From a virus: DNA of 64,000 bases. Positions 375 through 64,000 of the stretch are shown piece by piece. Positions within the stretch are counted from its first letter, which is position 1; each line of letters begins with the position of its first letter. The stretch covers positions 64,001 to 128,000 of IMG/VR virus record IMGVR_UViG_3300020057_000001. One strand, 5' to 3'. Both the position numbers and the translations under genes were made by a program. The notes under the pieces were generated by a model. That model was not told the origin of the DNA, did not search any database, and saw nothing but the letters and a program-made list of their open reading frames with translations.

Positions 375-1865
375 TCATTTCTTGCTTTGTTTGGGGAGCG
401 TGTCCGGCTTTTTAACGTCTTTCAATTCGTTTATTGTTTCATGGTCAGCGTTCTCTAGCGCATTGTTAAACTCGTCGGTCTCATTCTTCGGATCGTAGCT
501 GTAGTGCCCGATTTTTGAAATATTTACACCGTGGTGATTATTTAAGTGATCGATCACATCATTTGCAGCAGCCCTGTGGGTGCCTGTGACAAGAGACCCA
601 TTCCCCATCTCACCATCGATCATGAAAGGCGGGATTTTGTTTTCACCTTTTATTTGAGACACGACCATTTGATGCACGTGCGGCCAATCGTGCACGACGT
701 GGATCGGGTTGAAGTTTTGCGGATAATAAGGTTTCTGTGAGAATTTAGCAATAGTCTGTTTTAAAGCATGCGGTAAGTTGTTTGATTTTATGAGAGGGTT
801 CTTCGGCGGTTTTGGAATTGCAATCTTTTTGGGAGCTTCAAAATCTGTTCCCGAACTCGATTCATCACGGGGATGCCCAACTTCGATATCTTTGCTGCTC
901 ACTTTGAAGTGTGCCTCGGGGTGTGCGACGACGATTTCTTCTTCACTTGAATGGACTGGGTTGTGCCCTGGATAAAGTGAATGGCCGCCGGTGTGCAGCA
1001 CGTCTCTTAAGGGGACGTCCTTTTTCATGATGAGGTGGTGAGGGTGATCTTCTGAATCGTGCTCCCCCCGCCCTGTAGCGAAACGCGTAGCCATGTCACG
1101 ACTAAGAGACCAAGAGGACATGTGAGCCGAAGGGATTGTTACGGTTTTGTGGCGGTCCACTTTTGAAGCCTTCCCTACAGTGTAGGGGGACATACCGCCT
1201 TCGAGGTATTTTTCCTCGTCATGGTCTGTTACACCTAGTGAATCTTTCACCCGCTTTGCATAGCTTCCACCCACACCTCTATAGACCGTGATGTGCGGCT
1301 CGCCGTTAATCATTTTCTTGTTAATGTGGCTGTCGTTCATAATCGCTTTCTGTGAAGCAATCATGTGGTTAACGAGGTGAGGGGTTTGGTGCTTATGCTC
1401 GTCTGAGTGGCCCTTGTCACCTCTATGCGTTTCAATGTGTTCAGGCTCCCCCGTGTACATCGCTTTAATAGCCGCAAAATGGCTGGGCTCCACTTTTCTC
1501 TCGTATGAGTTCCAGAAGTCCCCAGATTGCTGCTCACCTTCCTCGGCGCCTCCACCTTGGTAGTTGGGGTGCGCTAAGATGGCTCCTGTGGAAAATTGCT
1601 CGTCAGGCGCGTGGCTCCATGCGTGTCTGAGTTGCTCTCTTGAGAGGTCCGGGTGTAGGTTGCCCGCTAAATTGTACAGTACATCCGATATTTGATCTTT
1701 GGGCGCGTGCTTCAGGTATTTTTCAACGTGACTTGGGGGAATAGGGTGTTCTTGTGCAGCAAGCATTTGAAAACCGCTGTGGTGTCTCAGTTTGTGTGCC
1801 ACTGCGATGGCTTTGTCCCAGTCCTGTGTCTGGGCGTAATGGTCTAAAAGTTGGTAGTCGTTCAT
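375..1865 (-). CDS. Polyvalent protein: R-S-E type ADP-ribosyltransferase-like domain plus C-terminal ParB/Srx-like domain
   Basis: TVYRG ... MSSWS ... SEEEIVV is the R/SxS/ExE ART triad in the correct order. After a PLIKS linker, IPPFMID...LVTGTHRAAA resembles the ParB N-domain GxHR motif. Confidence 0.65.
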   Translation of the reverse strand: MNDYQLLDHYAQTQDWDKAIAVAHKLRHHSGFQMLAAQEHPIPPSHVEKYLKHAPKDQISDVLYNLAGNLHPDLSREQLRHAWSHAPDEQFSTGAILAHPNYQGGGAEEGEQQSGDFWNSYERKVEPSHFAAIKAMYTGEPEHIETHRGDKGHSDEHKHQTPHLVNHMIASQKAIMNDSHINKKMINGEPHITVYRGVGGSYAKRVKDSLGVTDHDEEKYLEGGMSPYTVGKASKVDRHKTVTIPSAHMSSWSLSRDMATRFATGRGEHDSEDHPHHLIMKKDVPLRDVLHTGGHSLYPGHNPVHSSEEEIVVAHPEAHFKVSSKDIEVGHPRDESSSGTDFEAPKKIAIPKPPKNPLIKSNNLPHALKQTIAKFSQKPYYPQNFNPIHVVHDWPHVHQMVVSQIKGENKIPPFMIDGEMGNGSLVTGTHRAAANDVIDHLNNHHGVNISKIGHYSYDPKNETDEFNNALENADHETINELKDVKKPDTLPKQSKK

Positions 1866-4267
1866 TTGGCACCCCTGCGCCCAATCGCATGCGCAACTTC
1901 CCGAGCTTCATCCCAGTCCACGGTCACTTCGTTGTCTGATTTTTTTAGAGAAGGCCCCTTTTGCCTAAACTGCCTAAACTTCCAGAGGTGTTCGGCATCG
2001 TGGCTCGTAGAACCTGCCTCTAATGGAACTCTGAAATGTTCCTCTGCATAGTCGTACATTGCCGACGCAACCCCTTTACGCTGGTGCTGAGGAAACACCT
2101 CTGTCTCGTAAGACATAATGTGGTCGGTGGGCTTTTTAGAAAAAATAGGCACGCCCTCTGCGTCTTCGTTATTGTCCCAATCATGGTAACCTATGCTTGC
2201 AAATCCCGCATGGTTTCCTTGCTTATCGTGGGCATTAACGTAGATGCCGCCGTGTGGGGAAGTTGTGTGAGAGAGCGTGTAACCCTCTTTTTGCCAATCC
2301 CCATTTTCACCTTTGCCCAAAGCAGCGACCCCCACTTGCCCAGCACTCTTTTTTATCTCTGGCTGCGGTTCTAGCAGCGCATTCTTTTCAGGAAGTTGTG
2401 TAGTTTGGTGTGCGGTTTTCAACGAGCGTAGCACTGACGCGTATTTTGCAGCGGCATGCAAGACACTCGTCTCGTTTCCAAACTCTAGCTTAGCCATTGA
2501 GGAGTTTCTAGCAACACCTCCAACGCCCTTTTGCGAACTGTGGTCCGAGTGTCTGATTTTTGGATGGTCAAATGGGAAACGTATGTATCTTGAATTCGTT
2601 GTCTCTGCCTTTTCTTCCCCGTGAGGAATACCTGAATCTTTGAGTTGACTTAAAAAGGCGTCGCATTGCAGGCTGCGTGTCTTCTGAGACGCAATCGCAA
2701 AACCTTGTTTTTCAAATTCGTCAGGTTGGAGCCCTTGGATGTACGCATGAGCGGAAGGAAGATCAGGAAAGCTTTCGGTGACCCCCTTTTTATTAGAAAC
2801 TTTCACGGGTTTGTTTACGTGCTCCTCGAGCCAAATACTACGGGAGACGCCCAAAGGACGGTCCGCCGGTGTGAGCGGAACGTGAGTAATATGCAAAGGC
2901 TTACCCAAAAGTGCGTCTTTTTTGTGCGGGTGGCTGTTCCTCACGGAATAGTAATTTGACATTGCGCGAAGTTTTTGCAAGCCCGTGCCTGCTTTGTTCA
3001 AATCTTTCGCCCAAACAATCGGAGGTTTTAGTGGGTCGCCCTGCACAACTTTTCGCGTTTTCCCGTCCATCGTAGGCTCTGGTAAATCTTTCGCATTTAA
3101 TTTAGACCAAACCCGTTTCGCTGCGTTTGACGTTTTGCCGGTATCTGACGCAAGGCCGCCGTAATGATCTGCTAACTTTTGATAAACTTTTTGTCCTAGA
3201 CCCTTACCCCTGTGAGGCTTGTCTATGAAGGAATGAGACATATGCATCCCATCGTGGCTTTTGTCGTGAAATTCCGAGTGGTCGACTAAAAATTTCCCAA
3301 CCGTTTTGTTTTCGTGATGTAATTCCCAGTAGTGTCTTTTGGAAGTCCCCCGCTCTCCTGGTTCAGTCCAGTTTCTGTGATGGAGTGTATACCCGTTCCC
3401 AATTTCATGCATCGTGAGCCCTTGAGCGTCTTCAGCTTTGTTGAGCTTCTCGCCGTTCATTTTGGGAAACATTTTCAGTATCAGATTGTGTTTTGCAGCG
3501 ACGTGAAGGTTTTCTAGGATTTCTTTCGGTAAACGCGCATTCACACTAAACCACTTAAAGCCTAGAGCTTCCTTGTCAGGGTCGTTTTCGTTTGTTATTT
3601 TTTGCGGGACTTTCTCTAGTTCAACTAAAAACGCCTTGACCACTTTGCCGTTAGGTGTTTTGCACCTCAATTTAGCGTCTGTAATTTCAGCTAAGTCTTG
3701 TATGCCTGTCTCTTCCCTAAATTCCCTTATTGCGCCTTTTTCAAAATCTTCGCCGTTTTCGACGTGTCCGCCAGGAAAGGTCCACTTTTTATTGTCGTTT
3801 CTTTTCATCATGAGAAGCTTATTATCCGCTTTCACTGCAAGACACGCCACGCGGTTACTTTCCGATTTCCACAGGCGGGTAGACTTCTTGACAGGCTCCG
3901 TCGAGTAATCCTCAATTTCGCTTTGATGGACACGTTCAGGGTGACCGCCTAAAGTGTAGAAATTACCGCCGCCTTCTTGGAGACTTTTTCCATTGTCTAC
4001 GATTTGAAGCACTGGATACCACAAGCCCTTGTACTTCGCTGTGTGCCCTTTGGGAGCCTTGTTTGCATTTGCTTTAGCTCGTGCAATTGCGTCTGCAAGG
4101 CTTTTTGCAAGTGCCGGATAAGACTTTGTTAACTGCGTGGCAGTGCTCATTGCGCTTTTTGCGAGACGGCTATCGCCGAGCTTAAGAGCCTCCTCTGCAA
4201 TTTTGAGGGCTTCGCTAAAAGCTTTTAAAGCGTTTTGTTGAATTTGGGTAAGTGGTTGTTTTTGCAT
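1862..4267 (-). CDS. Polyvalent protein: Nudix hydrolase + two GNAT acetyltransferase domains
   Basis: Full Nudix box PGGHVENGEDFEKGAIREFREETG. Two GNAT motif A copies (HRGKGLGQKVY; HQRKGVASAMY). Start moved to ATG 4267, which has a GAGGGG RBS. Confidence 0.8.
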   Translation of the reverse strand: MQKQPLTQIQQNALKAFSEALKIAEEALKLGDSRLAKSAMSTATQLTKSYPALAKSLADAIARAKANANKAPKGHTAKYKGLWYPVLQIVDNGKSLQEGGGNFYTLGGHPERVHQSEIEDYSTEPVKKSTRLWKSESNRVACLAVKADNKLLMMKRNDNKKWTFPGGHVENGEDFEKGAIREFREETGIQDLAEITDAKLRCKTPNGKVVKAFLVELEKVPQKITNENDPDKEALGFKWFSVNARLPKEILENLHVAAKHNLILKMFPKMNGEKLNKAEDAQGLTMHEIGNGYTLHHRNWTEPGERGTSKRHYWELHHENKTVGKFLVDHSEFHDKSHDGMHMSHSFIDKPHRGKGLGQKVYQKLADHYGGLASDTGKTSNAAKRVWSKLNAKDLPEPTMDGKTRKVVQGDPLKPPIVWAKDLNKAGTGLQKLRAMSNYYSVRNSHPHKKDALLGKPLHITHVPLTPADRPLGVSRSIWLEEHVNKPVKVSNKKGVTESFPDLPSAHAYIQGLQPDEFEKQGFAIASQKTRSLQCDAFLSQLKDSGIPHGEEKAETTNSRYIRFPFDHPKIRHSDHSSQKGVGGVARNSSMAKLEFGNETSVLHAAAKYASVLRSLKTAHQTTQLPEKNALLEPQPEIKKSAGQVGVAALGKGENGDWQKEGYTLSHTTSPHGGIYVNAHDKQGNHAGFASIGYHDWDNNEDAEGVPIFSKKPTDHIMSYETEVFPQHQRKGVASAMYDYAEEHFRVPLEAGSTSHDAEHLWKFRQFRQKGPSLKKSDNEVTVDWDEAREVAHAIGRRGAK

Positions 4268-4353
4268 AGGCCCCTCAAAAAGGTGTATAATCAACATTTT
4301 ATCGCAACAGGTCGTAAAATACAACTGACAAACTAAGCTTGAGGGGCAAAACA

Positions 4354-6732
4354 ATGGCCGGAACTATTAGTCACGCATCGCTCGCGTCACTTGGGTCTTT
4401 ACATAACGCACGCGTCGATCTGGTCTCAGGTGCTCCCGCTGGGTCGCCTCTTTACATTGGCCAAACTGCGTGGGACCAAGTCAACTCCCGCTTTTACATA
4501 GCGGTCGGTACCAATCCCGGAGACTGGGTGACTACTTCTATACCCGACGCGGTCTCCGTAGCTGACACCGCAACGGTTAACCTAACCCTTTCGAGCGGTT
4601 TATTATCGGCGGACGTCATAGAGGCAGCACTTTCGCTGCTCTCGACGCAGATCAGCGACTTTACGGCTGCGGTTACCACTAACAGTGACGTCGCGCAGAA
4701 CACCGCCAAGCGTCACGAGAGCTTGACCATTCCTGCGTCTCACACCCCGACTAGTATTGTCAACGGGTTAGAGCTTAATTTCATCAACCAAACTTTAAAG
4801 CTTTCTCAAAACCTTTCGACCGCAGGTTCTCCCATTTTTCAGGGCGCTACTCTCTCTACCCTGAGTACAGGTTTACTCCATGCAAACTCTTCGGGTGTTT
4901 TGTCCTCCTCTTTAGGAGTAAATGCGGATATTTCAGCTTCCGCTGCAATTGCAGGGACTAAGATTGCGCCCAACTTTGGATCTCAGACCGTACAAACCTC
5001 GGGACCCATTTTAGGGCAGAACTTTAACATCCAAGCGGGACAGACAGTCGTTACGCTTTTCCCAGACGCATTAGCCATTCAAATCGGTCAGTCAGCCACC
5101 CCCAAGGTTATTCAAATTGGTGGACCAAACGACATTGTGCAGATTCAGGGCAGCGCAATTATTAACCAAACCACAAACACATCGTCGAGAGACTCGACCG
5201 TGGTGATCAACCAGGGCGGCCTTGCGGGGTCAAGCGGGCAGGCAGGGCTTTACATTGAAGAAGCTGCGGTTGCTCTACTCCCAGCCACTACGAGCAATTG
5301 GCAGTCCGCCAATATTGTCAGAATGGCGATGGCTTCTACAGGAGCTATCACCGTAGGTAGCTTGGTAAATGTGCTAGGATTTAGCAACGCCCAAAACAAC
5401 GGGACTTTTCCTGTGACGTCCGTCTCAGCAAACGTCTTCATTGAGATTGACAATGCTCTGAGAACCGACGCTGCTTTAGATGAAGCCAGTGCGTCTGCCA
5501 CCGTGACCAACCCAGATTCAGCTAAAGGCTACGCCCGCATCTCGGCTGATAGAGCCTCTTGGGAATTCCAACCTTCTGGAGTTTCCGGACAGTTCATTTT
5601 TACCCCTGGCGCTTCTACTTTTACGTTTAACCAAGGCGTAAACTCCGCAGACGCCGTGTCTTTTTCTTCTCTGGCTCTCACAGGCGCGGGTACGGCTCTC
5701 TCTGTTACCAACAACTCGAGTCTGCTAGGCGACGTTGTGCTCGGGGTCGATAACACTAAAACGCTAGTCGTAAACTCGACAATTGCTTCCAATCTGTCTT
5801 TGGGCACGGGCTACAATATTACGCTATCTAACACGGGTCGGCTCGACGCACCTTTGGATCTCAATCTAGGCACCGTGAACGCCACGGTCGTAAATTTAGG
5901 GAGCGCTGGTACGGCTGTCACTCTGGCAAGTTTGACGGACGGTGTAGTGCTGTCTAGCAGCGGGGGTGTTCTTTCTTCTGGGCAAATCGTAAACACTAAC
6001 GTATCTAACTTAGCAGCAATAGCTTACTCAAAGCTTGCTCTTTCTAACTCTCTAGTCAATGCAGATATTAATGCTTCAGCAGCTATCGCTTACTCTAAGC
6101 TTGCTCTTTCCAACTCTCTAGTCAATGCAGATATTAATGCTTCAGCAGCTATCGCTTACTCTAAGCTTGCTCTTTCCAACTCTCTAGTAAATGCGGACGT
6201 TGCTCCGAGTGCAGCTATTGCTTACTCCAAGCTTGCTTTAACAAACTCTCTAGTCAATGCGGATATTGATGCTTCAGCAGCAATAGCTTACTCAAAGCTT
6301 GCTCTTTCCAACTCTCTAGTCAATGCAGATATTAATGCTTCAGCGGCTATAGCCGGAACAAAGATTGCACCTGACTTTGGCGCACAAACGGTAACCACGA
6401 CAGGTCTTACTCAAAGTGGCTCGTCGCGCATAACGGGCGCCGTGTACAGGTCCGTGGTTGCCACGCGGACGGCAAACTACTCTATCGCCGCAAACGACTA
6501 CGTTGTGAAGACGGATAGTACAAGCGGAACCTTTACGGTGACGCTGCCGAGTGCCGTCATAGAGGAAGGACGAGTTGTGTTTTTGAAGGACGTGTCAGAT
6601 TCTTGGGGTGTCGCACCTATTTCGATTACAGCTACCGCGGGACTAGTCGGTGGACTTTCAACGTTTGTAGGAGACGCGGACAGGCAGTCGCTTCAGTTCA
6701 TTAGTGACGGTGCGAATTGGCTTATTCTGTGA
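4354..6732 (+). CDS. Virion fibre/structural protein with 22-aa repeats
   Basis: G/S/T/A/N-rich beta-type sequence with tandem SNSLVNADINASAAIAYSKLAL repeats and a C-terminal domain ending FISDGANWLIL, typical of phage fibre proteins. ATG 4354 follows GAGGGG. Confidence 0.7.
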   Translation: MAGTISHASLASLGSLHNARVDLVSGAPAGSPLYIGQTAWDQVNSRFYIAVGTNPGDWVTTSIPDAVSVADTATVNLTLSSGLLSADVIEAALSLLSTQISDFTAAVTTNSDVAQNTAKRHESLTIPASHTPTSIVNGLELNFINQTLKLSQNLSTAGSPIFQGATLSTLSTGLLHANSSGVLSSSLGVNADISASAAIAGTKIAPNFGSQTVQTSGPILGQNFNIQAGQTVVTLFPDALAIQIGQSATPKVIQIGGPNDIVQIQGSAIINQTTNTSSRDSTVVINQGGLAGSSGQAGLYIEEAAVALLPATTSNWQSANIVRMAMASTGAITVGSLVNVLGFSNAQNNGTFPVTSVSANVFIEIDNALRTDAALDEASASATVTNPDSAKGYARISADRASWEFQPSGVSGQFIFTPGASTFTFNQGVNSADAVSFSSLALTGAGTALSVTNNSSLLGDVVLGVDNTKTLVVNSTIASNLSLGTGYNITLSNTGRLDAPLDLNLGTVNATVVNLGSAGTAVTLASLTDGVVLSSSGGVLSSGQIVNTNVSNLAAIAYSKLALSNSLVNADINASAAIAYSKLALSNSLVNADINASAAIAYSKLALSNSLVNADVAPSAAIAYSKLALTNSLVNADIDASAAIAYSKLALSNSLVNADINASAAIAGTKIAPDFGAQTVTTTGLTQSGSSRITGAVYRSVVATRTANYSIAANDYVVKTDSTSGTFTVTLPSAVIEEGRVVFLKDVSDSWGVAPISITATAGLVGGLSTFVGDADRQSLQFISDGANWLIL
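5986..6375 (+). repeat. In-frame 66-bp (22-aa) tandem repeat, about 5-6 copies
   Basis: Near-identical units TCTCTAGTCAATGCAGATATTAATGCTTCAGCAGCTATCGCTTACTCTAAGCTTGCTCTTTCCAAC. One further dispersed copy near 4915-4980. Confidence 0.95.
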
Positions 6733-6886
6733 CGAGTGTAGCTTCGACTGGCTGAGCACTTACCAAGGCTTCAAGCACTTGCAAGGCTTCAATGATAATT
6801 TCATGATCCTTTCGCGTACCTGAAAAATTAGCTGTTGCTTGTCCTACTACTTTGAGGGCGTCTACTGCGGTCATTGCTACGGTCAT
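6722..6886 (-). CDS. Small hypothetical protein (54 aa)
   Basis: Not in the ORF track. AGGAG RBS then ATG 6886; MTVAMTAVDALKVVGQ...LVTE, stop at 6722. Fills the gap between flanking genes. Confidence 0.55.
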   Translation of the reverse strand: MTVAMTAVDALKVVGQATANFSGTRKDHEIIIEALQVLEALVSAQPVEATLVTE

Positions 6887-6895
6887 GTAATTCTC

Positions 6896-7099: not shown

Positions 7100-7163
7100 A
7101 CAAAAACTCCTAAATAAATAATAAAGCAGAGAGAGGAATTTGGCAAGCCTTTCTCGTTTTAAC

Positions 7164-7190
7164 CTATCGGCTAGGCGGTCACGGACTTGA
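7164..7190 (-). promoter_or_regulatory. sigma28/FliA-like promoter
   Basis: TCAAG-N14-GCCGATAG on the minus strand, upstream of the ORF starting at 7099. Confidence 0.65.
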
Positions 7191-47590: not shown

Positions 47591-47603
47591 AGGAACCAGC
47601 AGC

Positions 47604-53546: not shown

Positions 53547-54395
53547 ATGTCTAGATATACTACACACGCTAAGGCTATGGCTGACGCGCTGACTCCCGAA
53601 CAGGTTGTCGCCCAGCTTAACACCTTGGCTACACAACTAGAAACGCTACAGAAATCAACCCCGATGTACAAAGCCGACGAAGACCAAGCACCTCTGGACG
53701 GCGAAATGCCTCCGATGGAAGGCGAGCAACCCCCTATGGAAGGCGAGCAACCCCCTATGGACCCAATGGCTCCCGAAGGCGAGATGCCTCCTATGGACCC
53801 AATGGCTCCTGAAGGCGACCCCGCTTTAGACGCAGATCCAGACGCAGCTCCTGCTGAAGGCGCTGAACAAGAAGTAGAGCAAGCAATTGAAGGCGGCGAC
53901 GAAGCTGAACTTCGAGAAGTGTTCGGCGACATGGAAGGCGAAGAACTCAGCCAACTGGTTGAATTTCTTGTTAAACTCCAAGAAGAAAAGTCGGCGCAGG
54001 TTGACAAATCGTCGGCTGGTATGGACCCACTTGCTATGAGCGAGTGCTTTACGGATATGAAAAAGAGCCAAAACGCCTTGCAAGCTCAAGTGGCAGCTCT
54101 TACAAAGAGCATCACTACTTTGACTGCACAAGTCAAAAAGCCCGCTCCCCGCCCCGCAAGCCGCCCTGCCATGATGAACAGCGAATCACTCTCTAAGAGC
54201 GACCGCTTTCCTGAGATGCTGAAAAAGAGCGAAGTTGTTGAATTTCTTGGCACTCAGATTCGCCGAGCTGGTAAGCCAGACGCCGACCTTTTGAGCCTTT
54301 GGCAAGACGCTTCCGCTACTGGGGAAGACCCATCAGCTCTTCGTAGTCTCTACAGCCGTGCCGAACGCATTGGCGTAAAGATTCCCCACAAGTAA
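53547..54395 (+). CDS. Scaffold/head-core-like protein with an acidic Pro/Met repeat and many xxKS motifs
   Basis: AAGGAG RBS; coiled coils; repeats EGEQPPM and PPMDPMAPEG; LQKS, VDKS, MKKS, LTKS, LSKS, LKKS. Confidence 0.55.
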   Translation: MSRYTTHAKAMADALTPEQVVAQLNTLATQLETLQKSTPMYKADEDQAPLDGEMPPMEGEQPPMEGEQPPMDPMAPEGEMPPMDPMAPEGDPALDADPDAAPAEGAEQEVEQAIEGGDEAELREVFGDMEGEELSQLVEFLVKLQEEKSAQVDKSSAGMDPLAMSECFTDMKKSQNALQAQVAALTKSITTLTAQVKKPAPRPASRPAMMNSESLSKSDRFPEMLKKSEVVEFLGTQIRRAGKPDADLLSLWQDASATGEDPSALRSLYSRAERIGVKIPHK

Positions 54396-54821: not shown

Positions 54822-54974
54822 ATGCTCGGCAAAAAGATCAAAGACAAAATGAATACATGTTGGGGTGGCTCTATGGAAAAAGCGGATGGCTGCGAGAAAG
54901 CGCCCAAGCTGGAAAAGTCCAAAGAAGAAAAAGCCCTCTTGCTAAAGTCTGTCGTTAAAAAATTAAAACTCTAA
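54822..54974 (+). CDS. Small Lys-rich protein with xxK(S/A) motifs (50 aa)
   Basis: Not in the track; AAGGA RBS; MEKA, LEKS, LLKS. Confidence 0.5.
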   Translation: MLGKKIKDKMNTCWGGSMEKADGCEKAPKLEKSKEEKALLLKSVVKKLKL

Positions 54975-54975
54975 G

Positions 54976-57900
54976 GTGACCGTTGTGCAACCCACTCGCT
55001 TGTCTTCGCTGGTCCGTAAATTAAAAAATAAAGTGGTAGCGCGCAGGGAAAATACTTTACATCCTGACGTTCATGCACAACTCTGGTCGGAACCAGAGGC
55101 CGAAACGATGCAAAAGTCAGACAAGCTCCCACACTACCAAAAGTTTATGGGCACTCACCCTAAAGCTCAAGAAACAGCAAGCTGGGTGGATGATAATATA
55201 AGCCACCGAGGGTTGGCTGAATTTGGCATGAGGCAAGCCAAGACAAGACCAGAAGGGTTAGGCAACGAAGAAAAGTCTCAACTAAAGCACTTTAACGATT
55301 CCCTACACATGCCGGAAGTGAAAAAGGGCGCAGGAGAGTTGACGAAAGATCACACTTGGGAAAGTGGGATTGAAAAGTTAAACGCACATGAAGCGGCGTA
55401 CACTGAAAAACATAAAAAAATAGCACCCTCGCTTGTGCCTTCGGAAGGCGAAAAACTCCTTGACTTAGGCGAAGGCGTCGGCCTTTATAATCTACCTCTT
55501 GATGGTGCGCGCAAGAACAAACATGAAGCAGTGGGCATGGGTCACTGCGCTACTGCACTTGAGGGTGGTGATCTTTGGTCGATCCGCAAAGACCATGGCA
55601 ACGGGATGGTGGAACCTATGGTTACCCTTTCTCACGCGGATGGGTACGTAGGTGAAGTGAAGGGAAAACACAACTGGAAGCCTTCAGAAAAACACCACTC
55701 AGCTATTTTGAAAGTTTTGGCAAGTGACTTAGTAAAGGGTTTTGTTGGTGGCGGTTATGCGCCAGAAAGCAATTTTAGCTTAAATGACGTAAAACCTGAA
55801 TGGAAACAGAAGCTCACATCCGTTAAGCCTACGCTCATGCAAAAACCTTACATAGAAACGTTACCGCTACCATTTGCGGACGGGTATAACCACGAGCCCG
55901 ACGTCCCGACAATTGCAAAAATCAAAGACCCTGCAAAAATGCTTCGCCTCGCCCAAGCAAGCGAGCCCAAATCCGCTGTTCACAATTACTCAGCCAAAAA
56001 CCCCAACATTTCTCCCGAAGTTGCACAGCACTTAGCGCAAACAAACAACCCAGGCTCTAGGGTTCACGAAAACTTAGCCAAAAACCCCAACCTCTCTCCA
56101 GAAGTTGCACATCATTTAGTCCAAACAAACAAGCCCAGATCCGGCGTTCACGTTCTCTTAGCCGAAAACCCCAACCTTTCTCCAGAAGCTGTGAAGCACT
56201 TAGCCCAAACAAACGAGCCCGATTCGCCCGTTCACGGAATCTTAGCCGAAAACCCCAACCTTTCTCCCGAACTTGCGCAGCACTTAGCCCAAACAAACGA
56301 GCCCGATTACCCCATTCACAACAGCTTAGCCAAAAACCCCAACCTCTCTCCAGAAGTTGCACATCATTTAGCCCAAACAAACAAGCCCGATTCCGACGTT
56401 CACAAATACTTAGCCAAAAACCCCAACCTCCCACCAGAAGTTGCACAACATTTAGCCCAAACAAACAAGCCAGGGGCCTTCGTTCACGTACTCTTAGCCA
56501 AAAACCCCAACCTCTCTCCAGAACTCGCACATCATTTAGCCCAAACAGACAAGCCAGGGGCCTTCGTTCACAACAGCTTAGCTCAAAACCCCAACCTCTC
56601 TCCAGAACTCGCACATCATTTAGCCCAAACAAACAAGCCCGATTCCTCCGTTCACCTTGCCTTAGCCAAAAACCCCAACCTTTCTCCCGAACTTGCACAT
56701 CATTTAGCCCAAGCAAGCGGACCCGCATCCGGCGTTCACCTTGCCTTAGCCAAAAACCCCAACCTTTCTCCAGAACTCGCACATCATTTAGCCCAAGCAA
56801 ACGAGCCCGTATCCTCCGTTCACCTTCTCTTAGCCAAAAACCCCAACCTTTCTCCAGAAGCTGCGCAGCATTTAGCCCAAACAAACAAGCCCGATTCCTC
56901 CATTCACGCATACTTAGCTGAAAACCCCAACCTTTCTCCAGAAGCTGCGCAGCATTTAGCCCAAACAAACAAGCCCGATTCCGACGTTCACAACAGCTTA
57001 GCCCAAAACCCCAAATACGCACATCTTGCGTTATCCGCACCACGCCCTCAACAAGCTACGCACATCCAAAAACTTATCGGCATTCTCAACGACGAAAACG
57101 CTGATAGAGGTCTTCAACGTCAAGCCGCACAAGAAATTAAAACAAGAAGAGAAGAAGAACTGCAACACCGACTGTCTGACAAAGGCGATATGCAAGACCT
57201 CTTAAATTTAGCGGAATCTTCAGACGACGACGTGTCTGAAAAAGCCACTAAAGAAATTCAGAGAAGAAACCTACAAAAATCAATGCGTAAGTCCGAGAGC
57301 AAGGCCAAAACAAGTGTAGTAGCTAAGTTAAAAGCCAAAATAACTACAAAACCAAAAGACGCTCCGGTTCCTCCCCACGAGGTCATTGATTCAGGCATTT
57401 TGACGCCTTTCCATCAAACGTTAATTATGCACGGATCAAAAGTCTCATTAAAAGAAGCACGCGTCGGGCATTCAGAAGTAAACCCTAGCAGTAATAAGGA
57501 GCGGGCGGTGAATAAGGATCTTAAAAAGGGCGATATCGTTGGTGGAAACCCTGAAGCAAAAGAAAAACTAGCACTCACGAACGAAAACAGGGTGTCTTCG
57601 AGCCCCGCCGCGATTGGTGCATATAAAAAACCATTTCAATTTACACAGCGCGACGGGGCTAGTGGACGGCGCGTTAACGTACAAACCAGCAGTGGTAAAA
57701 ATATCATGTCACATTTTGACCATGCGGCGCATCAAGACTTCAGCTCTGCGGATCACAAAGAAGCCGCCGTTGCCCACCAGAGACACCTTATTGAGTTAAA
57801 GGAGGGTCGACCGCACCCAGACCTTCTAAAGTTTCATCAAGACCAGTACAAAAACCATTGGCAGCAACACCAAGATCTAAAGAACCGGAGTAACACGATG

Positions 57901-58125
57901 TTAGGTAAGTCCTTAAAGGCAAAGTTTCTCAAAAAGGCTTCTCTTGACAAATCACAGACTTTAAGCCATTCTTCAGCGCCTAAGCTTTCCAAGTCCTCCA
58001 CGCTGGGACAGAGAATCAAGGCTGCTCTGGCAAGTCCTGAGATGCCGACCTTTCCACGGAACCACCACTCCGAAGTGCCTCACCATGACCCCCGAGACGT
58101 AAAATATTTTGATATCGAGGAATAA
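54976..58125 (+). CDS. Polyvalent protein: PcfJ-like domain + 28-aa helical (LRV/HEAT-like) repeats + further xxKS-separated modules
   Basis: EAVGMGHC..LWSIR..EPMVT..GEVKGKHN (PcfJ-like); 12 AKNPNLSPE..HLAQ repeats. Confidence 0.7.
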   Translation: MTVVQPTRLSSLVRKLKNKVVARRENTLHPDVHAQLWSEPEAETMQKSDKLPHYQKFMGTHPKAQETASWVDDNISHRGLAEFGMRQAKTRPEGLGNEEKSQLKHFNDSLHMPEVKKGAGELTKDHTWESGIEKLNAHEAAYTEKHKKIAPSLVPSEGEKLLDLGEGVGLYNLPLDGARKNKHEAVGMGHCATALEGGDLWSIRKDHGNGMVEPMVTLSHADGYVGEVKGKHNWKPSEKHHSAILKVLASDLVKGFVGGGYAPESNFSLNDVKPEWKQKLTSVKPTLMQKPYIETLPLPFADGYNHEPDVPTIAKIKDPAKMLRLAQASEPKSAVHNYSAKNPNISPEVAQHLAQTNNPGSRVHENLAKNPNLSPEVAHHLVQTNKPRSGVHVLLAENPNLSPEAVKHLAQTNEPDSPVHGILAENPNLSPELAQHLAQTNEPDYPIHNSLAKNPNLSPEVAHHLAQTNKPDSDVHKYLAKNPNLPPEVAQHLAQTNKPGAFVHVLLAKNPNLSPELAHHLAQTDKPGAFVHNSLAQNPNLSPELAHHLAQTNKPDSSVHLALAKNPNLSPELAHHLAQASGPASGVHLALAKNPNLSPELAHHLAQANEPVSSVHLLLAKNPNLSPEAAQHLAQTNKPDSSIHAYLAENPNLSPEAAQHLAQTNKPDSDVHNSLAQNPKYAHLALSAPRPQQATHIQKLIGILNDENADRGLQRQAAQEIKTRREEELQHRLSDKGDMQDLLNLAESSDDDVSEKATKEIQRRNLQKSMRKSESKAKTSVVAKLKAKITTKPKDAPVPPHEVIDSGILTPFHQTLIMHGSKVSLKEARVGHSEVNPSSNKERAVNKDLKKGDIVGGNPEAKEKLALTNENRVSSSPAAIGAYKKPFQFTQRDGASGRRVNVQTSSGKNIMSHFDHAAHQDFSSADHKEAAVAHQRHLIELKEGRPHPDLLKFHQDQYKNHWQQHQDLKNRSNTMLGKSLKAKFLKKASLDKSQTLSHSSAPKLSKSSTLGQRIKAALASPEMPTFPRNHHSEVPHHDPRDVKYFDIEE
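55993..57000 (+). repeat. 12 x 84-bp in-frame tandem repeat
   Basis: Consensus AKNPNLSPExAxHLAQTNxPxxxVHxxL. Confidence 0.95.
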
Positions 58126-58127
58126 AA

Positions 58128-60635
58128 GTGGAAAAGTTAGCAAAAGCTGGGTTTACACAACTGAAACAGATGTTTGCGGAAACCAACGATCACGACCACG
58201 TCGTAAAATGGGCTGCTGACAGCATCAAACCTAACGACATGCAGTCTTGGTACTTGCGCAACTATAAGCAAAATCCGGCTATTCACACAAAGGCCAACCA
58301 AGAAAAAATCGCACATTTTTCTGGAATGCATGGTCTTTCTGAGGATATCAAAAACGTTAAATTAGATAAAAACGACACGTTAGAATCAGGTTTAGCGAAA
58401 TACGATCAGGCTGAAAAAAAATGGCAATCCAGTAGTGGGAGCCGTTTTACTGCTCCAGAAGGTAAGAAGATCGTTGACCTTGGTAACAACATGGGTTGGT
58501 ACAATCTCAAAAAGCCTACGTCAGATGAAGAGGCTAGCTGCATGGGACATTGTGGAAATTATGGAAATCCTCACGAAAAAGACCAAATTTTTTCTTTGCG
58601 AAAAGAAGTAAAAGTTGGAAACAAGACCTATCACGAGCCTATGTCAACTGCCATTTACAATAAAGGTTGGCTGGGGGAAATGAAAGGTCGAGCAAATTCT
58701 CGTCCAGGTGCGAAGTTTCATGAACACTATGCGGCACTGTTGAAACACCCTAAAATCAAAGGGTTAATCGGGGCGGGGCATAAACCACACGAAAATTTTC
58801 ATTTCGACGACCTAAGCCCAGAACTTCAACAGCAAGTCAAAACAGCAAACCCAAAGATGGTGGACTTAAGAAGTAATGCTTGGGACACAGCAACAAAACA
58901 TAAAGCCACAGCGTCCGTTCCGAAAATTGAAAAGTATCAGAGCACTGTCAAAGACATTCACCGATCGACTGAACTGAAAGATCAATTGGATCAGGGACAT
59001 CCAATGGACGCTCTTGACCCAAACGACTTAAGACTAGTCGTTGATCATCCAGCTTTTCAAAAAGGGCACCTTGACAAATTAGTAAAGGGTCTAGCGGATC
59101 AAAAAGGCATCAAGGATGTGTATTCAAAACTCCAAGCATATGGCGCTATTGAGAGATCCCCACATTTAAACGACCAGCACATCGACCACTTAATCGATTC
59201 AGATGAAACGGCTAACACAGCTCAATTATTAAGAAAAAAACTCAACCAAAGCCACGTAGACAACATCGTTCAAAAAGCTCCTGCCATGGCAGCAGAACAG
59301 TTAAAAGACCACCGTCTGTTAAACCAAAGCCACATAACCCATATTGTTAAAGAATACCCCGGTAGAGCAGCCCTATATTTAAACAACCACCCCCTCTTAA
59401 ACGCAACCCACATAGACCAAATTGCTCAAAAAGCACCCCACGCAGCAGCCGTACATTTAAAAGACCACCCCCTTCTCAACGCAAGCCACATAGACCACAT
59501 TGTCCGACAAGAACCCAGAGAAGCAGCGAAACATTTAAAAGACCACCCCCTCTTAAACGCAAGCCACATAGACCGTATTGCGCAAGACGAACCCTTCGCC
59601 GCAGCAAGACATTTAACCGACCACCCCGTCTTCAACGCAAGCCACATAGACCGTATTGTCCAACAAGACCCCGCTTCCGCCGCCGCAAATTTAAAAGACC
59701 ACCCCCTCTTTAACCAAAGCCACCTAGACCAAATTGTTCAAGGCAACTCCGGCGCAGCAGCCGTACATTTAAAAGACCACCCCCTTCTCAACGCAAGCCA
59801 CATAGACCGTATTGTTCAAAAAGAACCCGGCACAGCAGCCTACCATTTAAACAACCACCCCCTCTTCAACGCAAGCCACATAACCCAGCTTGCCCAAAAA
59901 GACCCCAACGCCGCAGCCCTATATTTAAATAATCACCGCCTCTTCAACCAAAGCCATATAGACCACATTGTTCAAGAGCACCCCAACGCAGCGCTAGAGT
60001 ATTTAAGAAAACACCCCCTTCTCAACGTAAGCCACATAACCCATATTGCCCAAAAAGAACCCGGCGCAGCCGCCCAATATTTAAACGACCACCCTCTCTT
60101 CAACGCAAGCCATATAGACCACATTGTTCAACAAGACCCCTATAGAGCAGCTGGATTTTTAAACGACCACCCCCTCTTTAACCAAAGCCACATAACCCAT
60201 ATTGTTCAAGAAGCACCCCACATAGCAGCCGAATATTTAAAAGACCACCCCCTTCTCAACCAAAGCCATATAGACCACATGGTTCAAGAAGCACCCTTCA
60301 GAGCAGCCGCATATTTAAAAGACCACCCCCTTCTCAACCAAAGCCATATAGACCACATTGTTCAAGAAGCACCCCACATAGCAGCCGAATATTTAAAAGA
60401 CCACCCCCTCTTTGCAGAAGCTATGAGACGCGCTAAAGCTAAAAAAGTACAGAAACCCGAAGCAACTGCTCCGCTAACCAAATCTGAGAAAAACTTAAAG
60501 AGCGTCGTTCAAAAATTGAAACGTAAGGCTACACCACAAACACCAGACACAGCGTTCGAAGCCCAAACCGCTAGGAAAAACCTTCTCAGTAGTATAGCAT
60601 CCAAACTGAAGAAGATACCCGCTGGCCCAACTTGA
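58128..60635 (+). CDS. PcfJ-like domain + 26-aa helical repeat protein (paralog A)
   Basis: EASCMGHCGN..IFSLRK..EPMST..GEMKGRAN; 15 repeats of (L/F)NQSHIDHIVQxxPxxAAxxLKDHPL. Confidence 0.75.
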   Translation: MEKLAKAGFTQLKQMFAETNDHDHVVKWAADSIKPNDMQSWYLRNYKQNPAIHTKANQEKIAHFSGMHGLSEDIKNVKLDKNDTLESGLAKYDQAEKKWQSSSGSRFTAPEGKKIVDLGNNMGWYNLKKPTSDEEASCMGHCGNYGNPHEKDQIFSLRKEVKVGNKTYHEPMSTAIYNKGWLGEMKGRANSRPGAKFHEHYAALLKHPKIKGLIGAGHKPHENFHFDDLSPELQQQVKTANPKMVDLRSNAWDTATKHKATASVPKIEKYQSTVKDIHRSTELKDQLDQGHPMDALDPNDLRLVVDHPAFQKGHLDKLVKGLADQKGIKDVYSKLQAYGAIERSPHLNDQHIDHLIDSDETANTAQLLRKKLNQSHVDNIVQKAPAMAAEQLKDHRLLNQSHITHIVKEYPGRAALYLNNHPLLNATHIDQIAQKAPHAAAVHLKDHPLLNASHIDHIVRQEPREAAKHLKDHPLLNASHIDRIAQDEPFAAARHLTDHPVFNASHIDRIVQQDPASAAANLKDHPLFNQSHLDQIVQGNSGAAAVHLKDHPLLNASHIDRIVQKEPGTAAYHLNNHPLFNASHITQLAQKDPNAAALYLNNHRLFNQSHIDHIVQEHPNAALEYLRKHPLLNVSHITHIAQKEPGAAAQYLNDHPLFNASHIDHIVQQDPYRAAGFLNDHPLFNQSHITHIVQEAPHIAAEYLKDHPLLNQSHIDHMVQEAPFRAAAYLKDHPLLNQSHIDHIVQEAPHIAAEYLKDHPLFAEAMRRAKAKKVQKPEATAPLTKSEKNLKSVVQKLKRKATPQTPDTAFEAQTARKNLLSSIASKLKKIPAGPT
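59241..60410 (+). repeat. 15 x 78-bp in-frame tandem repeat
   Basis: Counted from the translation; 15 x 78 = 1170 bp fits exactly. Confidence 0.95.
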
Positions 60636-60691
60636 ATAGGCTACTCAACCTTGACCCGAGACGTAAAATATTTTGATATCGAGGAGTAAAA

Positions 60692-63600
60692 GTGGAAAAG
60701 TTAGCAAAAGCTGGGTTTACACAACTGAAACAGATGTTTGCAGATTCGGACGATCACGACCACGTCGTTAAGTGGGCTGCTGACAGCATCAAACCAAACG
60801 ACATGCAGTCTTGGTACTTGCGAAATTACAAACAAAATCCGGCTATTCACACAACGGAAAACCAAGAAAAAATTGCACATTTTTCGGGAATGCATGGTCT
60901 TTCCGAGGATATCAAAAACGTTAAGCTGGACAAGAACGACACGTTAGAATCAGGTTTAGCGAAATACGATCAGGCCGAGAAAAAATGGCAATCCAGTAGT
61001 GGGAGCCGTTTCACGGCTCCAGAAGGTAAGAAGATCGTTGAGCTTGGGAACGGTATGGGTTGGTACGATTTAAAGAAGCCGGTGTCAAGTGAAGAGGCTA
61101 ACTGCATGGGCCATTGTGGAAATTCGGGAAATCCTCACGAAAAAGACCAAATTTTTTCTTTGCGAAAAGAAGTAAAAGTCGGAAATAAAACGTACCACGA
61201 GCCCATGTCAACTGCTATTTACAATAAGGGTTGGTTAGGCGAAATGAAAGGTCGAGCCAATTCTCGTCCAGGTGAAAAGTTTCATGAACACTACGCGGCA
61301 CTCCTAAAGCACCCTAAAATCAAAGGGTTAATCGGTGCGGGGCATAAACCACAAGAAAATTTTCATTTCGACGACTTGAGCCCAGAACTTCAACAACAAG
61401 TCAAAACAGCAAATCCGGCAATGGTGGACTTAAGAAGTAATGCTTGGGACACAGCAACAAAATACAAAGCCACGGCGTCCGTTCCTAAAATTAAAAAATA
61501 TCAGCATACTGTCAAAGACATTCACCGATCCACGGAACTGAAAGATCAATTGGATCAGGGACATCCAATGGACGCGCTCAAGTCAAGCGACTTAAGACTA
61601 GTCGTTGACCATCCAGCTTTTCAAAAAGGACACCTTGACAAATTAGTAAAAGGTATAGCTAACCAAAAAGGCATCAAGGATGTGTATTCAAAACTCCAAG
61701 CCTACGGTGCTATTGAAAGATCTCCGCATTTAAACGACCAACACATCGACCACTTAATCGATTCAGATGAGATCGCTAACACAGCGCAACTATTAAGAAA
61801 AAAACTCAACCAAAGCCACGTAGATAGCATTGTGCAAAAAGCTCCCGTCATGGCAGCAAAACAGTTAAAAGACCACCGTCTGTTAAACCAAAGCCACGTA
61901 GACCACATTGTTCAAAAAGCCCCTGGCATGGCAGCGGAATATTTAAACGACCACCCCCTCTTCAACGCAAGCCACATAGACCACATTGCTCAAAAATACC
62001 CCTCCAAAGCAGCTGGATATTTAAACGACCACCCCCTCTTCAACCAAAGCCACCTAGACCATATTGTTCAAGAGTACCCCAACGCAGCCGAATATTTAAA
62101 AGACCACCCCCTATTCAACCAAAGCCACGTAGATAGCATTGTGCAAACAGACCCCGGCATGGCAGCAGAACAGTTAAAAGACCACCGTCTCTTTAATCAA
62201 AGTCATATAGACCGTATTGCGCAAGAATCACCCTACTCAGCAGCAGAACAGTTAAAAGACCACCCCCTTCTCAACCAAAGCCACATAGACCACATTGTTC
62301 AAGAAAACCCCCGCGTAGCCGCCCAATATTTAAATAAGCACCTCCTCCTCAACCAAAGCCACATAGACCACATTGTTCAACAAGACCCCCGCTTAGCAGC
62401 CTCCCGTTTAAAAGACCACCCCCTTTTCAACCAAAGCCACATAACACATATTGTTCAACAAGAACCCAGCGAAGCAGCGGAACAGTTAAAAGACCACCCC
62501 CTTCTCAACCAAAGCCACATAGACCACATTGTTCAAGAAAACCCCCGCGTAGCCGCCCAATATTTAAATAAGCACCTCCTCCTCAACCAAAGCCACATAG
62601 ACCATATTGTCCAAAAAGAACCCAGCAAAGCAGCCTACCGTTTAAAAGACCACCCACTCTTCAACGCAAGCCACGTAGATCACATTGTCCAAAACGTCCC
62701 CTATTCCGCAGTCGAGGCTTTACAAAACCACCCCCTCCTCAACCAAAGCCACATAGACCACCTTGTTCAACAAGTACCCCACATAGCAGCCGAATATTTA
62801 AAAGACCACCCCCTCTTTGCAGAAGCTGTGAGACGAGCCGAAGCTAAAAAAGTACAGAAATCCGAAGCAACTGCTCCGCTAACCAAATCTGAGAAAAACT
62901 TAAAAAGCGTCGTTCAAAAATTGAAACGTAAGGCTACACCGCAAAAGCCTTGGAACCCAGAATCATACGGGTATGACGACGGCTCCGACGATGTTTACAA
63001 TGACATCGACGACGCGGTAGATCATCACAACCTATCCGCAAACCGTCGTATGGAAAGATATCAGGAAATAAATCCGGAACACACAGAAAAAATGATGGAC
63101 CCGAGTGAGTTAATTCCCTCTGCGCACCTACCTCAAACGTCAGGTTGGTTAAAGCAGCACCCGGAGCAAGAGTGGATCAATCGCTTGAAAGAGCAATTTC
63201 CAGATCGAGATTTCGCTCACACTTTAGACAAAAAGAATAAAAAAGCGTTATCGCCAGCCATCACCATCAACGGTGAACTTGCGGACGGTTATGGACGAGC
63301 CCACCTTGCGCATGCCCTTGGTGAGCACTTACCGACGTATGATTATAAAAGAAAATTACAAAAATCCATCGTAGGCGTACCGCAAATGAAAAAATCCAAC
63401 GACCTTGCCCAAGACCTTAAGAAACAGGGCGCAAAAGACCCCAAAGCCATACTTCAAACGCAAAAAGAAAAAGAAGACCTAAAGAAAGGCGACGTAGTAA
63501 CTTTAGGCGCAAAAATCAAAGCAAAGATCAAAGCAAAAAAAGAAAGCTCTTCCACGGAAGCGTCAACGGTAAAACGGCTTTCCCCGGAAGAGCAATTGGC

Positions 63601-64000
63601 CAATAGAAAAAAACATCAGGCTGAGGCAAACAGCTCCGCAATGACCGACGTCTCTTCTCATAGGAGAGGAGCCTACGCCCCGCAGAATAGTGCAGCGGAA
63701 CGCCTGAAGGAACGTGCTGAGACAGTTAAAAAGCTAAAAGACCAAAGCGACCATAAAGACCGCCTCGTTCACATGATGGGCGAACAACACGGACCCGTAG
63801 GCGCTTCCGCAGCAAGCCATGTTTTTGAAGCAAACGCAGATCGTTATTCGTTATCGTTAAATCGTGACGACACCCGTGAAAAGGAACGCGTCGCAGGAAA
63901 AGCGAAGACCTATATTACGCATTACGGACAGACGCCCGAAGGGCACCACGTGTTTCTTCACCAGAACGCAGGATTAGCCCGTCTTATGGCAGTGCCTTCA
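60692..64000 (+). CDS. PcfJ-like + 26-aa repeat protein with an extra ParB-like module (paralog B; runs off the right edge)
   Basis: Not in the track (no stop in the window). GTG 60692 after GAGGAG. N-terminus near-identical to 58128. 13 repeats, then SPAITINGELADGYGRAHLAHALG (ParB-like) and LQKS, MKKS, LKKG motifs. Confidence 0.8.
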   Translation, partial: MEKLAKAGFTQLKQMFADSDDHDHVVKWAADSIKPNDMQSWYLRNYKQNPAIHTTENQEKIAHFSGMHGLSEDIKNVKLDKNDTLESGLAKYDQAEKKWQSSSGSRFTAPEGKKIVELGNGMGWYDLKKPVSSEEANCMGHCGNSGNPHEKDQIFSLRKEVKVGNKTYHEPMSTAIYNKGWLGEMKGRANSRPGEKFHEHYAALLKHPKIKGLIGAGHKPQENFHFDDLSPELQQQVKTANPAMVDLRSNAWDTATKYKATASVPKIKKYQHTVKDIHRSTELKDQLDQGHPMDALKSSDLRLVVDHPAFQKGHLDKLVKGIANQKGIKDVYSKLQAYGAIERSPHLNDQHIDHLIDSDEIANTAQLLRKKLNQSHVDSIVQKAPVMAAKQLKDHRLLNQSHVDHIVQKAPGMAAEYLNDHPLFNASHIDHIAQKYPSKAAGYLNDHPLFNQSHLDHIVQEYPNAAEYLKDHPLFNQSHVDSIVQTDPGMAAEQLKDHRLFNQSHIDRIAQESPYSAAEQLKDHPLLNQSHIDHIVQENPRVAAQYLNKHLLLNQSHIDHIVQQDPRLAASRLKDHPLFNQSHITHIVQQEPSEAAEQLKDHPLLNQSHIDHIVQENPRVAAQYLNKHLLLNQSHIDHIVQKEPSKAAYRLKDHPLFNASHVDHIVQNVPYSAVEALQNHPLLNQSHIDHLVQQVPHIAAEYLKDHPLFAEAVRRAEAKKVQKSEATAPLTKSEKNLKSVVQKLKRKATPQKPWNPESYGYDDGSDDVYNDIDDAVDHHNLSANRRMERYQEINPEHTEKMMDPSELIPSAHLPQTSGWLKQHPEQEWINRLKEQFPDRDFAHTLDKKNKKALSPAITINGELADGYGRAHLAHALGEHLPTYDYKRKLQKSIVGVPQMKKSNDLAQDLKKQGAKDPKAILQTQKEKEDLKKGDVVTLGAKIKAKIKAKKESSSTEASTVKRLSPEEQLANRKKHQAEANSSAMTDVSSHRRGAYAPQNSAAERLKERAETVKKLKDQSDHKDRLVHMMGEQHGPVGASAASHVFEANADRYSLSLNRDDTREKERVAGKAKTYITHYGQTPEGHHVFLHQNAGLARLMAVPS
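61805..62815 (+). repeat. 13 x 78-bp in-frame tandem repeat (one unit lacks a codon)
   Basis: Manual translation; units 7 and 10 are identical. Confidence 0.93.

Follow-up and report, generated by a model that had tools for sequence, protein, structure and literature searches.

Genes of the window and their setting

The DNA analysed here, referred to as the window, is a stretch of 64,000 nucleotides (nt) corresponding to bases 64001-128000 of the virus record IMGVR_UViG_3300020057_000001, which is 160,071 bp long and has direct terminal repeats. A preliminary description of the window had noted that a short motif, [LMVI]xK[SAG], recurs in otherwise unrelated proteins, often at apparent domain boundaries, and had proposed that these are polyproteins chopped into separate enzymes in the phage head. 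We followed up this proposal with 166 open reading frames (ORFs) called across the whole genome rather than the window alone, and with related phage loci and proteins. The proteins concerned are g079, which resembles an ADP-ribosyltransferase (ART), the Nudix/GNAT protein g080 and the paralogues g133-g137, together the seven candidates for packaged cargo, along with the scaffold-like protein g131 (Table 1). A narrower core of the motif, L-x-K-S, is concentrated in the head proteins and in these candidates, and in g080, g079 and their relatives it lies at the edges of modules, where it may serve as a cleavage site of the prohead protease.

The phage is a terminally redundant myophage, Mx1-like and outside the family Herelleviridae; it is distant kin of Myxococcus phage Mx1, the nearest annotated relative of the record, and of Herelleviridae. 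Its closest relatives have a capsid protein 89% identical and a protease 80% identical to its own. A megablast search of the window DNA against the phage collection returned no match, profile scans assigned no Pfam or PHROG family to g079, g134-g137 or g125, and no paper on Mx1 turned up in literature searches. Most of the head machinery, the scaffold excepted, lies outside the window, and therefore could not be seen by the reader who described it.

Table 1. Positions of the genes and sequence elements discussed (window coordinates unless marked as genome coordinates; ↓ marks a predicted cut; aa, amino acids)
Feature	Position	Strand	Description
g079	375..1865	-	496 aa; ART-like N-terminal module (~1-353), Pro/Lys linker with LIK↓S (358-361), C-terminal domain
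g080	1862..4267	-	801 aa (P0017); the ORF 1862..4354 encodes 830 aa; predicted cuts after K37, K48, K55, K128, K134, K277, K425, K640, K652 and K776
309-aa protein	47523..48452	+	Upstream of scaffold, conserved in relatives; VDK↓SE and LVK↓SV, then acidic runs
Scaffold-like g131	53547..54395	+	282 aa, acidic, Pro-rich; five [LM]xKS plus VDKS and MYKA
50-aa ORF	54822..54974	+	LEKS and LLKS; resembles the paralogues' basic C-terminal tail (KSVVxKLK); gene status uncertain
g133	54976..58125	+	1049 aa; shared N-terminal module, LRV_2 helical repeat array, K-rich C-terminal part with six [LM]xKS
g134	58128..60635	+	835 aa; N-terminal MEKLAK↓A, constant module, helical repeats, conserved C-terminal LTK↓S, basic tail
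g135	60692..64000	+	First 1103 of 1578 aa; gene ends at window position 65428
GTAAAAT copies in the window	4320, 46726, 51043, 52961, 58105, 60669	+	
Large terminase g025	genome 25284-27746		BLASTP against Mx1
Portal g027	genome 28797-30764		BLASTP against Mx1
MuF-like protein g032			BLASTP against Mx1
Putative prohead protease g043	genome 40156-40947		BLASTP against Mx1
Major capsid protein g141	genome 136584-138134		BLASTP against Mx1
Tail sheath g146			BLASTP against Mx1

Concentration of the motif in head proteins and candidate cargo

All copies of the motif listed in the preliminary description were found in the genes named there. The ORFs were divided into five recognised head proteins (portal, MuF-like protein, putative prohead protease, scaffold and major capsid protein), the seven candidates and the remaining 154 ORFs, and expected counts were derived from each protein's own composition (Table 2). 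The broad motif shows a mild genome-wide enrichment with a sharply localised excess. For [LM]xKS, the ratio of observed to expected counts is about 10-fold in the head proteins, 4-5-fold in the candidates and, at chance level, 0.96 in the other 154 ORFs. The excess in the candidates persists when one paralogue is counted (p=3e-7). Enrichment in single genes is strongest for g131 (5 vs 0.18 expected, p=1.3e-6), followed by g043 (4 vs 0.24), g080 (5 vs 0.57, p=3e-4) and g133 (6 vs 0.91, p=3.5e-4), with the portal and the capsid protein next.

Table 2. Observed and expected motif counts by gene class
Class	[LMVI]xK[SAG] observed	expected	[LM]xKS observed	expected
Whole genome	180	147	48	about 23
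Five head proteins	24	7.9	13	1.29
Seven candidates	50	25.6	18	4.18
Candidates, one paralogue counted	35	15.76	15	2.78
Remaining 154 ORFs	106	113.5	17	17.67

A single-position scan of the whole genome yielded 42 copies of L.KS against 19.2 expected (p=4e-6) and limited the excess to L at P3 and S at P1'; K at P1 gave 2.2x, and the higher values of L.HS and L.YS are probably repeat-derived. The core of the motif is thus L-x-K-S, narrower than the pattern first proposed. Neither the head proteins nor the candidates show an excess of the control motifs [LM]xRS, reversed SKx[LM] and [LM]xKT, which are flat or depleted there, and another 14 K-rich ORFs contain at most one hit each. Given these flat controls and expectations that follow each protein's own composition, lysine richness, an explanation against which the preliminary description had itself warned, is not the cause of the excess.

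The motif in the capsid protein, protease, scaffold and portal

The preliminary description had looked to the capsid and protease genes beyond the window for the same motif, and had guessed them to be of the SPO1/Twort type. Both were located outside the window, both carry the motif, as do the portal and the scaffold, and profile and tblastn matches support the guessed type. In the capsid protein, the sequence FERLNK↓SF places the motif at ORF residues 24-27, equivalent to residues 20-23 of the called protein; L20, K22, S23 and F24 are invariant in 8 homologues of 31-35% identity, while the preceding residues vary freely. The capsid-family profile matched SPO1 gp6.1 (9vel, E=3.2e-20) and the phi812 capsid protein (5lii, E=3.6e-8), and the site aligned with ALNKA and VVKSF in these capsid proteins.

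Residues 2-166 of g043 matched the Mx1 "putative prohead protease" in tblastn (E=6e-13). Down to E=5e-3 the only other matches were 291 phage records (Staphylococcus, Enterococcus, Lactobacillus and Listeria), and every annotated one among the matches listed is a prohead or head-maturation protease. Ten homologues all have D36-E37-H38 and S119, and the conserved His and Ser are the putative catalytic residues. Equally invariant in these homologues are DLQK↓S (161-165), which closes the protease domain, and LxKS (207-210), which precedes a C-terminal zinc ribbon. A profile search against PDB sequences found only this zinc ribbon (S27e-like). The AlphaFold2 (AF2) model had a predicted local distance difference test score (pLDDT) of 57, and its best Foldseek matches, herpesvirus proteases at E=0.07, as well as VIA alignments with the varicella-zoster virus protease (Z=3.8) and T4 gp21 (Z=3.3), were too weak to count; owing to the poor model, the fold of g043 is unconfirmed.

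The ORF g131 had been described as one of the enzyme polyproteins. Its position upstream of the capsid gene and a PHROG scaffold match, itself weak, point instead to a scaffold-like protein. Among 18 related IMG/VR loci (35-56% G+C), 13 have, ahead of the capsid gene, a syntenic protein of about 240-320 aa, with 4-6 sites each (p=1e-4 to 1.8e-8), and 4 of these 13 are BLAST homologues of g131. The portals of the related loci carry LxK↓SVKP close to the N-terminus. In Staphylococcus phage UHP46, the ORF between the protease and capsid genes contains nine ΦxK↓S, VSK↓SYQTGY is present in the capsid protein and ILK↓SF in the protease, immediately past its catalytic domain, and the portal carries the motif as well. 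Mx1 has three sites in its scaffold, two in its portal and four in a 1479-aa Nudix protein, one of the latter right behind the Nudix domain. The motif is thus concentrated at the capsid N-terminus, in the scaffold, in the C-terminal extension of the protease and at the portal termini, and in these places it is kept across distant relatives; at the capsid N-terminus, as in the cargo linkers described below, its flanks drift.

For the 309-aa protein upstream of the scaffold, the motif copies attributed to it are present, although its enrichment is not significant individually (p=0.12). It is a possible minor head protein.

We also observed that in UHP46 (L027:6920-10163) the protease sequence after the cut motif nearly copies the mature capsid N-terminus (ILK↓SFLTGNGISPETQVDAGALRREEL vs VSK↓SYQTGYGITPDTQVDAGALRREIL). 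The Mx1 protease (L008:13002-21103) likewise resembles it past the motif (AK↓AMEAGNFNAAPSTL vs RK↓AMEAGNFNAKPSTL). This copy may be a mimic through which the protease co-assembles into the shell; it is not obvious in g043.

Predicted sites at domain boundaries in g080 and g079

From its N-terminus, g080 consists of a helical bundle, a Nudix domain (136-270), a first GNAT domain (281-419), a 215-aa region, a second GNAT domain (651-766) and a short C-terminal helix. The Nudix and GNAT domains were assigned by Pfam and PHROG, and the AF2 model contains three confident enzyme domains. The predicted cuts after K128, K134, K277, K425, K640, K652 and K776 lie in low-pLDDT linkers at domain edges, so that 7 of the 8 sites beyond the N-terminal ones coincide with low-confidence linkers at domain edges and with the ends of homology blocks (p~0.001). 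This placement was also apparent from 428 block ends, obtained by homology with 150 database representatives, which lie on average 9.3 residues from the nearest site compared with 34.6 at random (p=0.001; p=0.006 when only K residues were sampled). The boundary placement first noted in this protein was thus confirmed by two approaches. One copy that the broad motif picks out, VVKA (P1 at K211; residue 238 of the 830-aa ORF), falls inside a Nudix beta strand and was dropped as a site; this copy and those in helices indicate that some instances of the motif cannot be cut sites.

P0018, which is 42% identical to g080, has LEK↓S and VMK↓S at two orthologous sites that read LNK↓A in g080, and the residues at P3 and P1' turn over while the site persists. 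Two different enzyme modules of the same protein are each preceded by a copy of a 25-residue linker cassette, LKKG(A/S)KWSMCVQKLKERTAGKSE (residues 18-45 and 168-195), which suggests that linkers were duplicated along with their cut sites.

The N-terminal 353 residues of g079 match the N-termini of P0125, P0024 and P0019, which run on into GNAT/Nudix modules of the g080 type. In all four proteins, the end of the ART-like module is followed by ΦxK↓S (LIK↓S, IKK↓S, VRK↓S and LGK↓S), in Pro/Lys linkers that are otherwise unrelated. A conserved E-x-E-I-V-V-x-H-P segment is common to the four. The ART assignment of the preliminary description is retained with caution: g079 has a YRG, an SxS and the ExE segment, which resemble an R-S-E signature weakly, and an Atlas structural match to DRAT reached TM 0.46. 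There is no Pfam match at E<=5 anywhere in g079, and the ParB assignment of its C-terminal part was therefore not supported.

The paralogues between scaffold and capsid genes

The five paralogues g133-g137 total 5,199 residues, have a common N-terminal module and occupy the interval between the scaffold gene and g138, g139 and the capsid gene. In relatives, the contents of this slot range from one 271-aa protein up to two of 844 and 1259 aa, lysine-rich and site-bearing. g133 matches Pfam LRV_2 and DUF2336, and its N-terminal module is 28-29% identical to that of g134-g137. g134 is 72-81% identical to g135-g137, and its module is also found in P0047, P0075 and P0092, where it is bounded by LLK↓A, MQK↓S and LQK↓S. 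g135 combines a g134-like part with an insertion of about 800 aa that contains LQK↓S, MKK↓S and LKK↓G, and its residues 758-909 match the solo protein P0059. g134-g137 gave weak matches to phrog_14131, "DNA binding protein" (E 2e-7 to 2e-4), and no Pfam match at E<=5, which leaves the PcfJ assignment made for them earlier without support. The Pfam scan detected no peptidase domain in any of the seven candidates.

Two different helical repeats are present in these proteins: about a dozen of LRV_2 type in g133 (window 55900-57200, …LAKNPNLSPEVAHHLAQTN…), and another in g134-g137 (window 59200-60400, …NQSHVDxIVQKAPxxAAxxLK…). The VQK[AS]P within the latter unit accounts for several of the broad-motif hits previously listed for g134 and g135, and these are unlikely to be cut sites. 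A basic amphipathic motif, (N)L(K/L)S(V/S)(V/I)xKLK(K/R), follows the last LTK↓S of each of g134-g137 in two copies and is found as well at the N-terminus of g133 and in the 50-aa ORF at 54822..54974; it is a candidate targeting or DNA-binding tail. A frameshift joining that ORF to g133 was considered but need not be invoked, each having its own copy of this motif.

The upstream element

The sequence GTAAAAT occurs 22 times in the genome, always on the plus strand, and 17 of the 22 copies are 18-64 nt upstream of gene starts. It precedes the genes for the protease, head decoration, capsid and sheath, the fibre-like g081 and each of g134-g137 (in g134, 23 nt before the start), and looks like a -10-type element of structural-gene promoters. 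g080 has only GATAAAAT, 29 nt upstream of its ATG. Linkage to the head genes accordingly differs among the candidates: g133-g137 lie between scaffold and capsid, and g134-g137 have the element, whereas g079 and g080 are located elsewhere with a variant of it.

The unit duplicated in g134-g137 (window 58050-58127 and 60590-60691, with equivalent junctions outside) includes the last codons of g133 (…DPRDVKYFDIEE). Because these codons hold GTAAAAT and the ribosome-binding site, the promoter of each paralogue is copied coding sequence of the preceding gene. Elsewhere in the genome, the large terminase g025 carries an intein (Pfam Intein_splicing, residues 218-349), and genes for HNH homing endonucleases are found after both the capsid gene (g142) and the head-decoration gene (g050).

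A wide family of modular proteins with the same motif

With g080 as the query, an exhaustive HMMER search retrieved 2013 relatives (E<=0.001), many of them 1,000-2,500 residues long. We analysed the 91 listed representatives of at least 600 aa. These contain 177 copies of [LM]xKS against 53 expected, and among all 8,000 patterns of the form a.bc, L.KS ranks first (149 vs 39.8, log10 p = -39), with even the catalytic signatures of the Nudix and GNAT domains below it. Both L.KG and L.KA reach 2.5-fold enrichment. Together with the S/A exchanges at orthologous sites, this supports Gly and Ala at P1', a part of the originally proposed pattern for which the signal in this genome is weak. The flanks of the 149 L.KS sites are diverse, with only E at P2' favoured (3.2-fold). 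The ends of internal BLAST blocks lie within 10 residues of [LMVIF]xK[SAG] in 56% of cases compared with 16% after circular shifting (z=22, n=22,939 ends, which are not independent observations), and four control motifs gave z<2.

Local phmmer searches with protease, portal, MuF and cargo queries revealed how the modules are combined. Besides the fusions of the g079 module to g080-type modules, P0047, P0055, P0068, P0075 and P0092 combine the constant N-terminal module of g133-g137 with GNAT/Nudix modules of the g080 type. In 24 representatives, the protein ends in an XkdF-type (Peptidase_S78_2) prohead protease; one of these, P0022, reads Nudix, methyltransferase, protease, with ΦxK↓S between the domains. 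The N-terminus of P0101 is a protease of the g043/Mx1 type. A tblastn search with the g080 Nudix domain also matched Arthrobacter phage genes annotated as "portal and MuF-like fusion protein". The swappable domains envisaged in the preliminary description thus have a counterpart in many phage proteins, which contain these modules in different orders and join them to each other and to prohead proteases.

Interpretation and alternative explanations

On balance, we consider it probable that L-x-K↓S is the site of the prohead protease, and that the modular proteins carrying it are packaged together, cut into separate enzymes and injected with the DNA. The cutting, its location in the prohead and the injection of the products are the parts of this reading that we infer. 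According to this model, the prohead serine protease g043 would recognise L-x-K↓S, tolerating Ala or Gly at P1' and Met, or more weakly Val and Ile, at P3. The cargo proteins g079, g080 and g133-g137 would be co-assembled into the prohead, where the protease would degrade the scaffold, remove its own tail and trim the capsid protein and portal, and would also split the cargo at its linkers into separate enzymes and binder modules. The resulting pieces would remain in the head until they pass into the host along with the DNA, where they would form an early cocktail for host takeover or against host defence.

Several points weigh against this model. The assignment of g043 as the protease depends on weak sequence similarity, and the evidence from its fold is weak (pLDDT 57). 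Some 50 kb separate g079 and g080 from the head module; both are encoded on the other strand beside fibre-like genes, and their version of the late element has one mismatch. None of five large related IMG/VR genomes contains a homologue of g080. Of the motif copies in g080, three N-terminal sites fall within helices predicted with confidence and one broad-motif hit within a beta strand. In addition, the non-independence of the block ends tempers the family-wide boundary statistics, and about 6,500 residues of cargo genes would be large for the capsid of this genome if copy numbers were high.

That the motif excess is a by-product of lysine-rich composition is extremely improbable, and we rejected it. 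The candidates are indeed K-rich (8-10%), but the expectations already include composition, the control motifs with K are not enriched, 14 other K-rich ORFs have at most one hit, boundary placement remains significant when sampling is confined to K, and the family-wide scan singles out L.KS. An inherited flexible linker, or a site for a host protease after delivery, would place the motif at junctions for another reason, and the duplicated cassette of P0018 clearly shows that some linkers are copied as such; moreover, the GNAT modules always start with LxKG..GDWxKEG, which could be part of the domain. We regard this explanation as unlikely, because the flanks of the L.KS sites in the family are highly diverse, S/A and L/V/M are exchanged at orthologous sites while the linkers diverge, and the motif is invariant at the capsid maturation position and behind the protease domain.

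The evidence from sites and boundaries is silent on the place of cleavage. The polyproteins might be cut in the cytoplasm by the phage protease or, in other phages, by a fused copy of it, in the manner of a viral polyprotein protease, with products that act late in the producing cell and are neither packaged nor injected, an option that fits the remoteness of g079 and g080 from the head module and the many relatives with a protease in cis. We think it unlikely too: prohead proteases of this class act within the assembled prohead (HK97, T4, phiKZ), the scaffold and capsid genes flank g133-g137, of which g134-g137 have the late element, and fusion to a prohead protease would itself bring the partner into the prohead. 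Alternatively, only g133-g137 might be packaged, as an inner-body or binder family trimmed at its ends, the Nudix/GNAT and ART-like proteins being uncut cytoplasmic proteins with a coincidental motif excess. The enrichment of g080 is borderline after correction for 166 ORFs, and g080 has neither a place in the head module nor a counterpart in relatives. Even so, this restriction is quite unlikely, given that boundary placement in g080 is independently significant, that g079 and g080 modules are elsewhere fused to g134-type modules and prohead proteases, and that the pattern is family-wide.

Returning to the packaging model, if one protease recognises a short linear site in trans, any site-flanked module becomes swappable, which would explain the shuffling across phages; a short linker motif would suffice for the protease, and this offers a mechanistic reason for the speed of that shuffling. 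Whether a trans-acting prohead protease with L-x-K↓S/A/G punctuation amounts to a general plug-and-play system of effector packaging, in a large and mostly uncultured group of myophages, is a question on which we lean slightly to the negative and offer the idea tentatively. In such a system, effectors bordered by the code would be joined into a carrier polyprotein, taken up by the prohead, freed as single enzymes and injected. If the code holds, the mature products of the seven cargo genes and of at least 91 large relatives become predictable, and the mature effector repertoire could be read across hundreds of phage polyvalent proteins, whose single products could then be expressed and assayed alone.

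Comparison with known systems

In T4 (gp21, LxE sites) and in phiKZ and SPN3US (gp175/gp245, S/A/G-x-E), one protease trims the capsid, destroys the scaffold and cuts packaged proteins, in T4 the IPs and Alt. The cargo of these phages is ejected into the host and comes in paralogous families, and T4 Alt is an ADP-ribosyltransferase. Published work on SPN3US describes the processing of ejected head proteins by the prohead protease at a shared motif. The present candidates resemble these systems in carrying the motif of the capsid protein and scaffold (18 vs 4.18 expected, with 13 vs 1.29 in head proteins). They differ in having Lys at P1 and Ser at P1', in place of Glu at P1, and in belonging to another phage lineage; multi-enzyme chains with predicted sites at module joints also contrast with the removal of a single propeptide there.

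The Herelleviridae (SPO1, Twort/K/phi812 and A511) have a homologous capsid protein and protease, and K↓S near capsid residue 23-31 aligns; in UHP46, scaffold, protease and portal have the same motif. The A511/Twort capsid precursor is reportedly cut at K↓S, a finding attributed to Loessner and Scherer (1995) and in keeping with the motif positions seen here in the capsid protein, protease, scaffold and portal. We know of no large enzyme cargo in Herelleviridae heads. The code, if correct, ties capsid maturation to effector delivery in a lineage in which internal head cargo has not been described. MuF-fused polymorphic toxins and the portal-MuF-Nudix fusions of siphophages also place enzyme domains, including Nudix, on head-internal proteins for delivery; there, delivery is by covalent fusion, and to our knowledge no protease punctuation accompanies it.

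A further close parallel is with the polyvalent proteins of phages and conjugative elements described by Iyer, Burroughs, Anand, de Souza and Aravind (2017; PMC5512222), which combine ART, GNAT and Nudix-linked modules by combinatorial shuffling. These authors predicted packaging in the capsid and processing into units, mainly by an embedded metallopeptidase, with a rare C-terminal assemblin-like peptidase in some proteins; no cleavage-site motif was described (PMC5512222). The proteins analysed here are alike in having at least two enzyme domains per chain (Nudix and two GNAT domains in g080; an ART-like and a second domain in g079) and in the reuse of the modules of g079, g080 and g133/g134 with varied partners (P0019, P0024, P0047, P0055, P0068, P0075, P0092 and P0125). 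They differ in that the protease is a separate gene, g043, proposed to act in trans, that an L-x-K↓S/A/G site lies at the module joints, and that the same motif is also present on the capsid protein, scaffold and portal. Polyvalent phage proteins are predicted arsenals for host takeover and anti-defence, for which cut sites and protease have hitherto been guesswork. What would be new here, judging from the sequences, is a Lys-Ser code in a different lineage, read by a protease in trans at module joints across a wide protein family.

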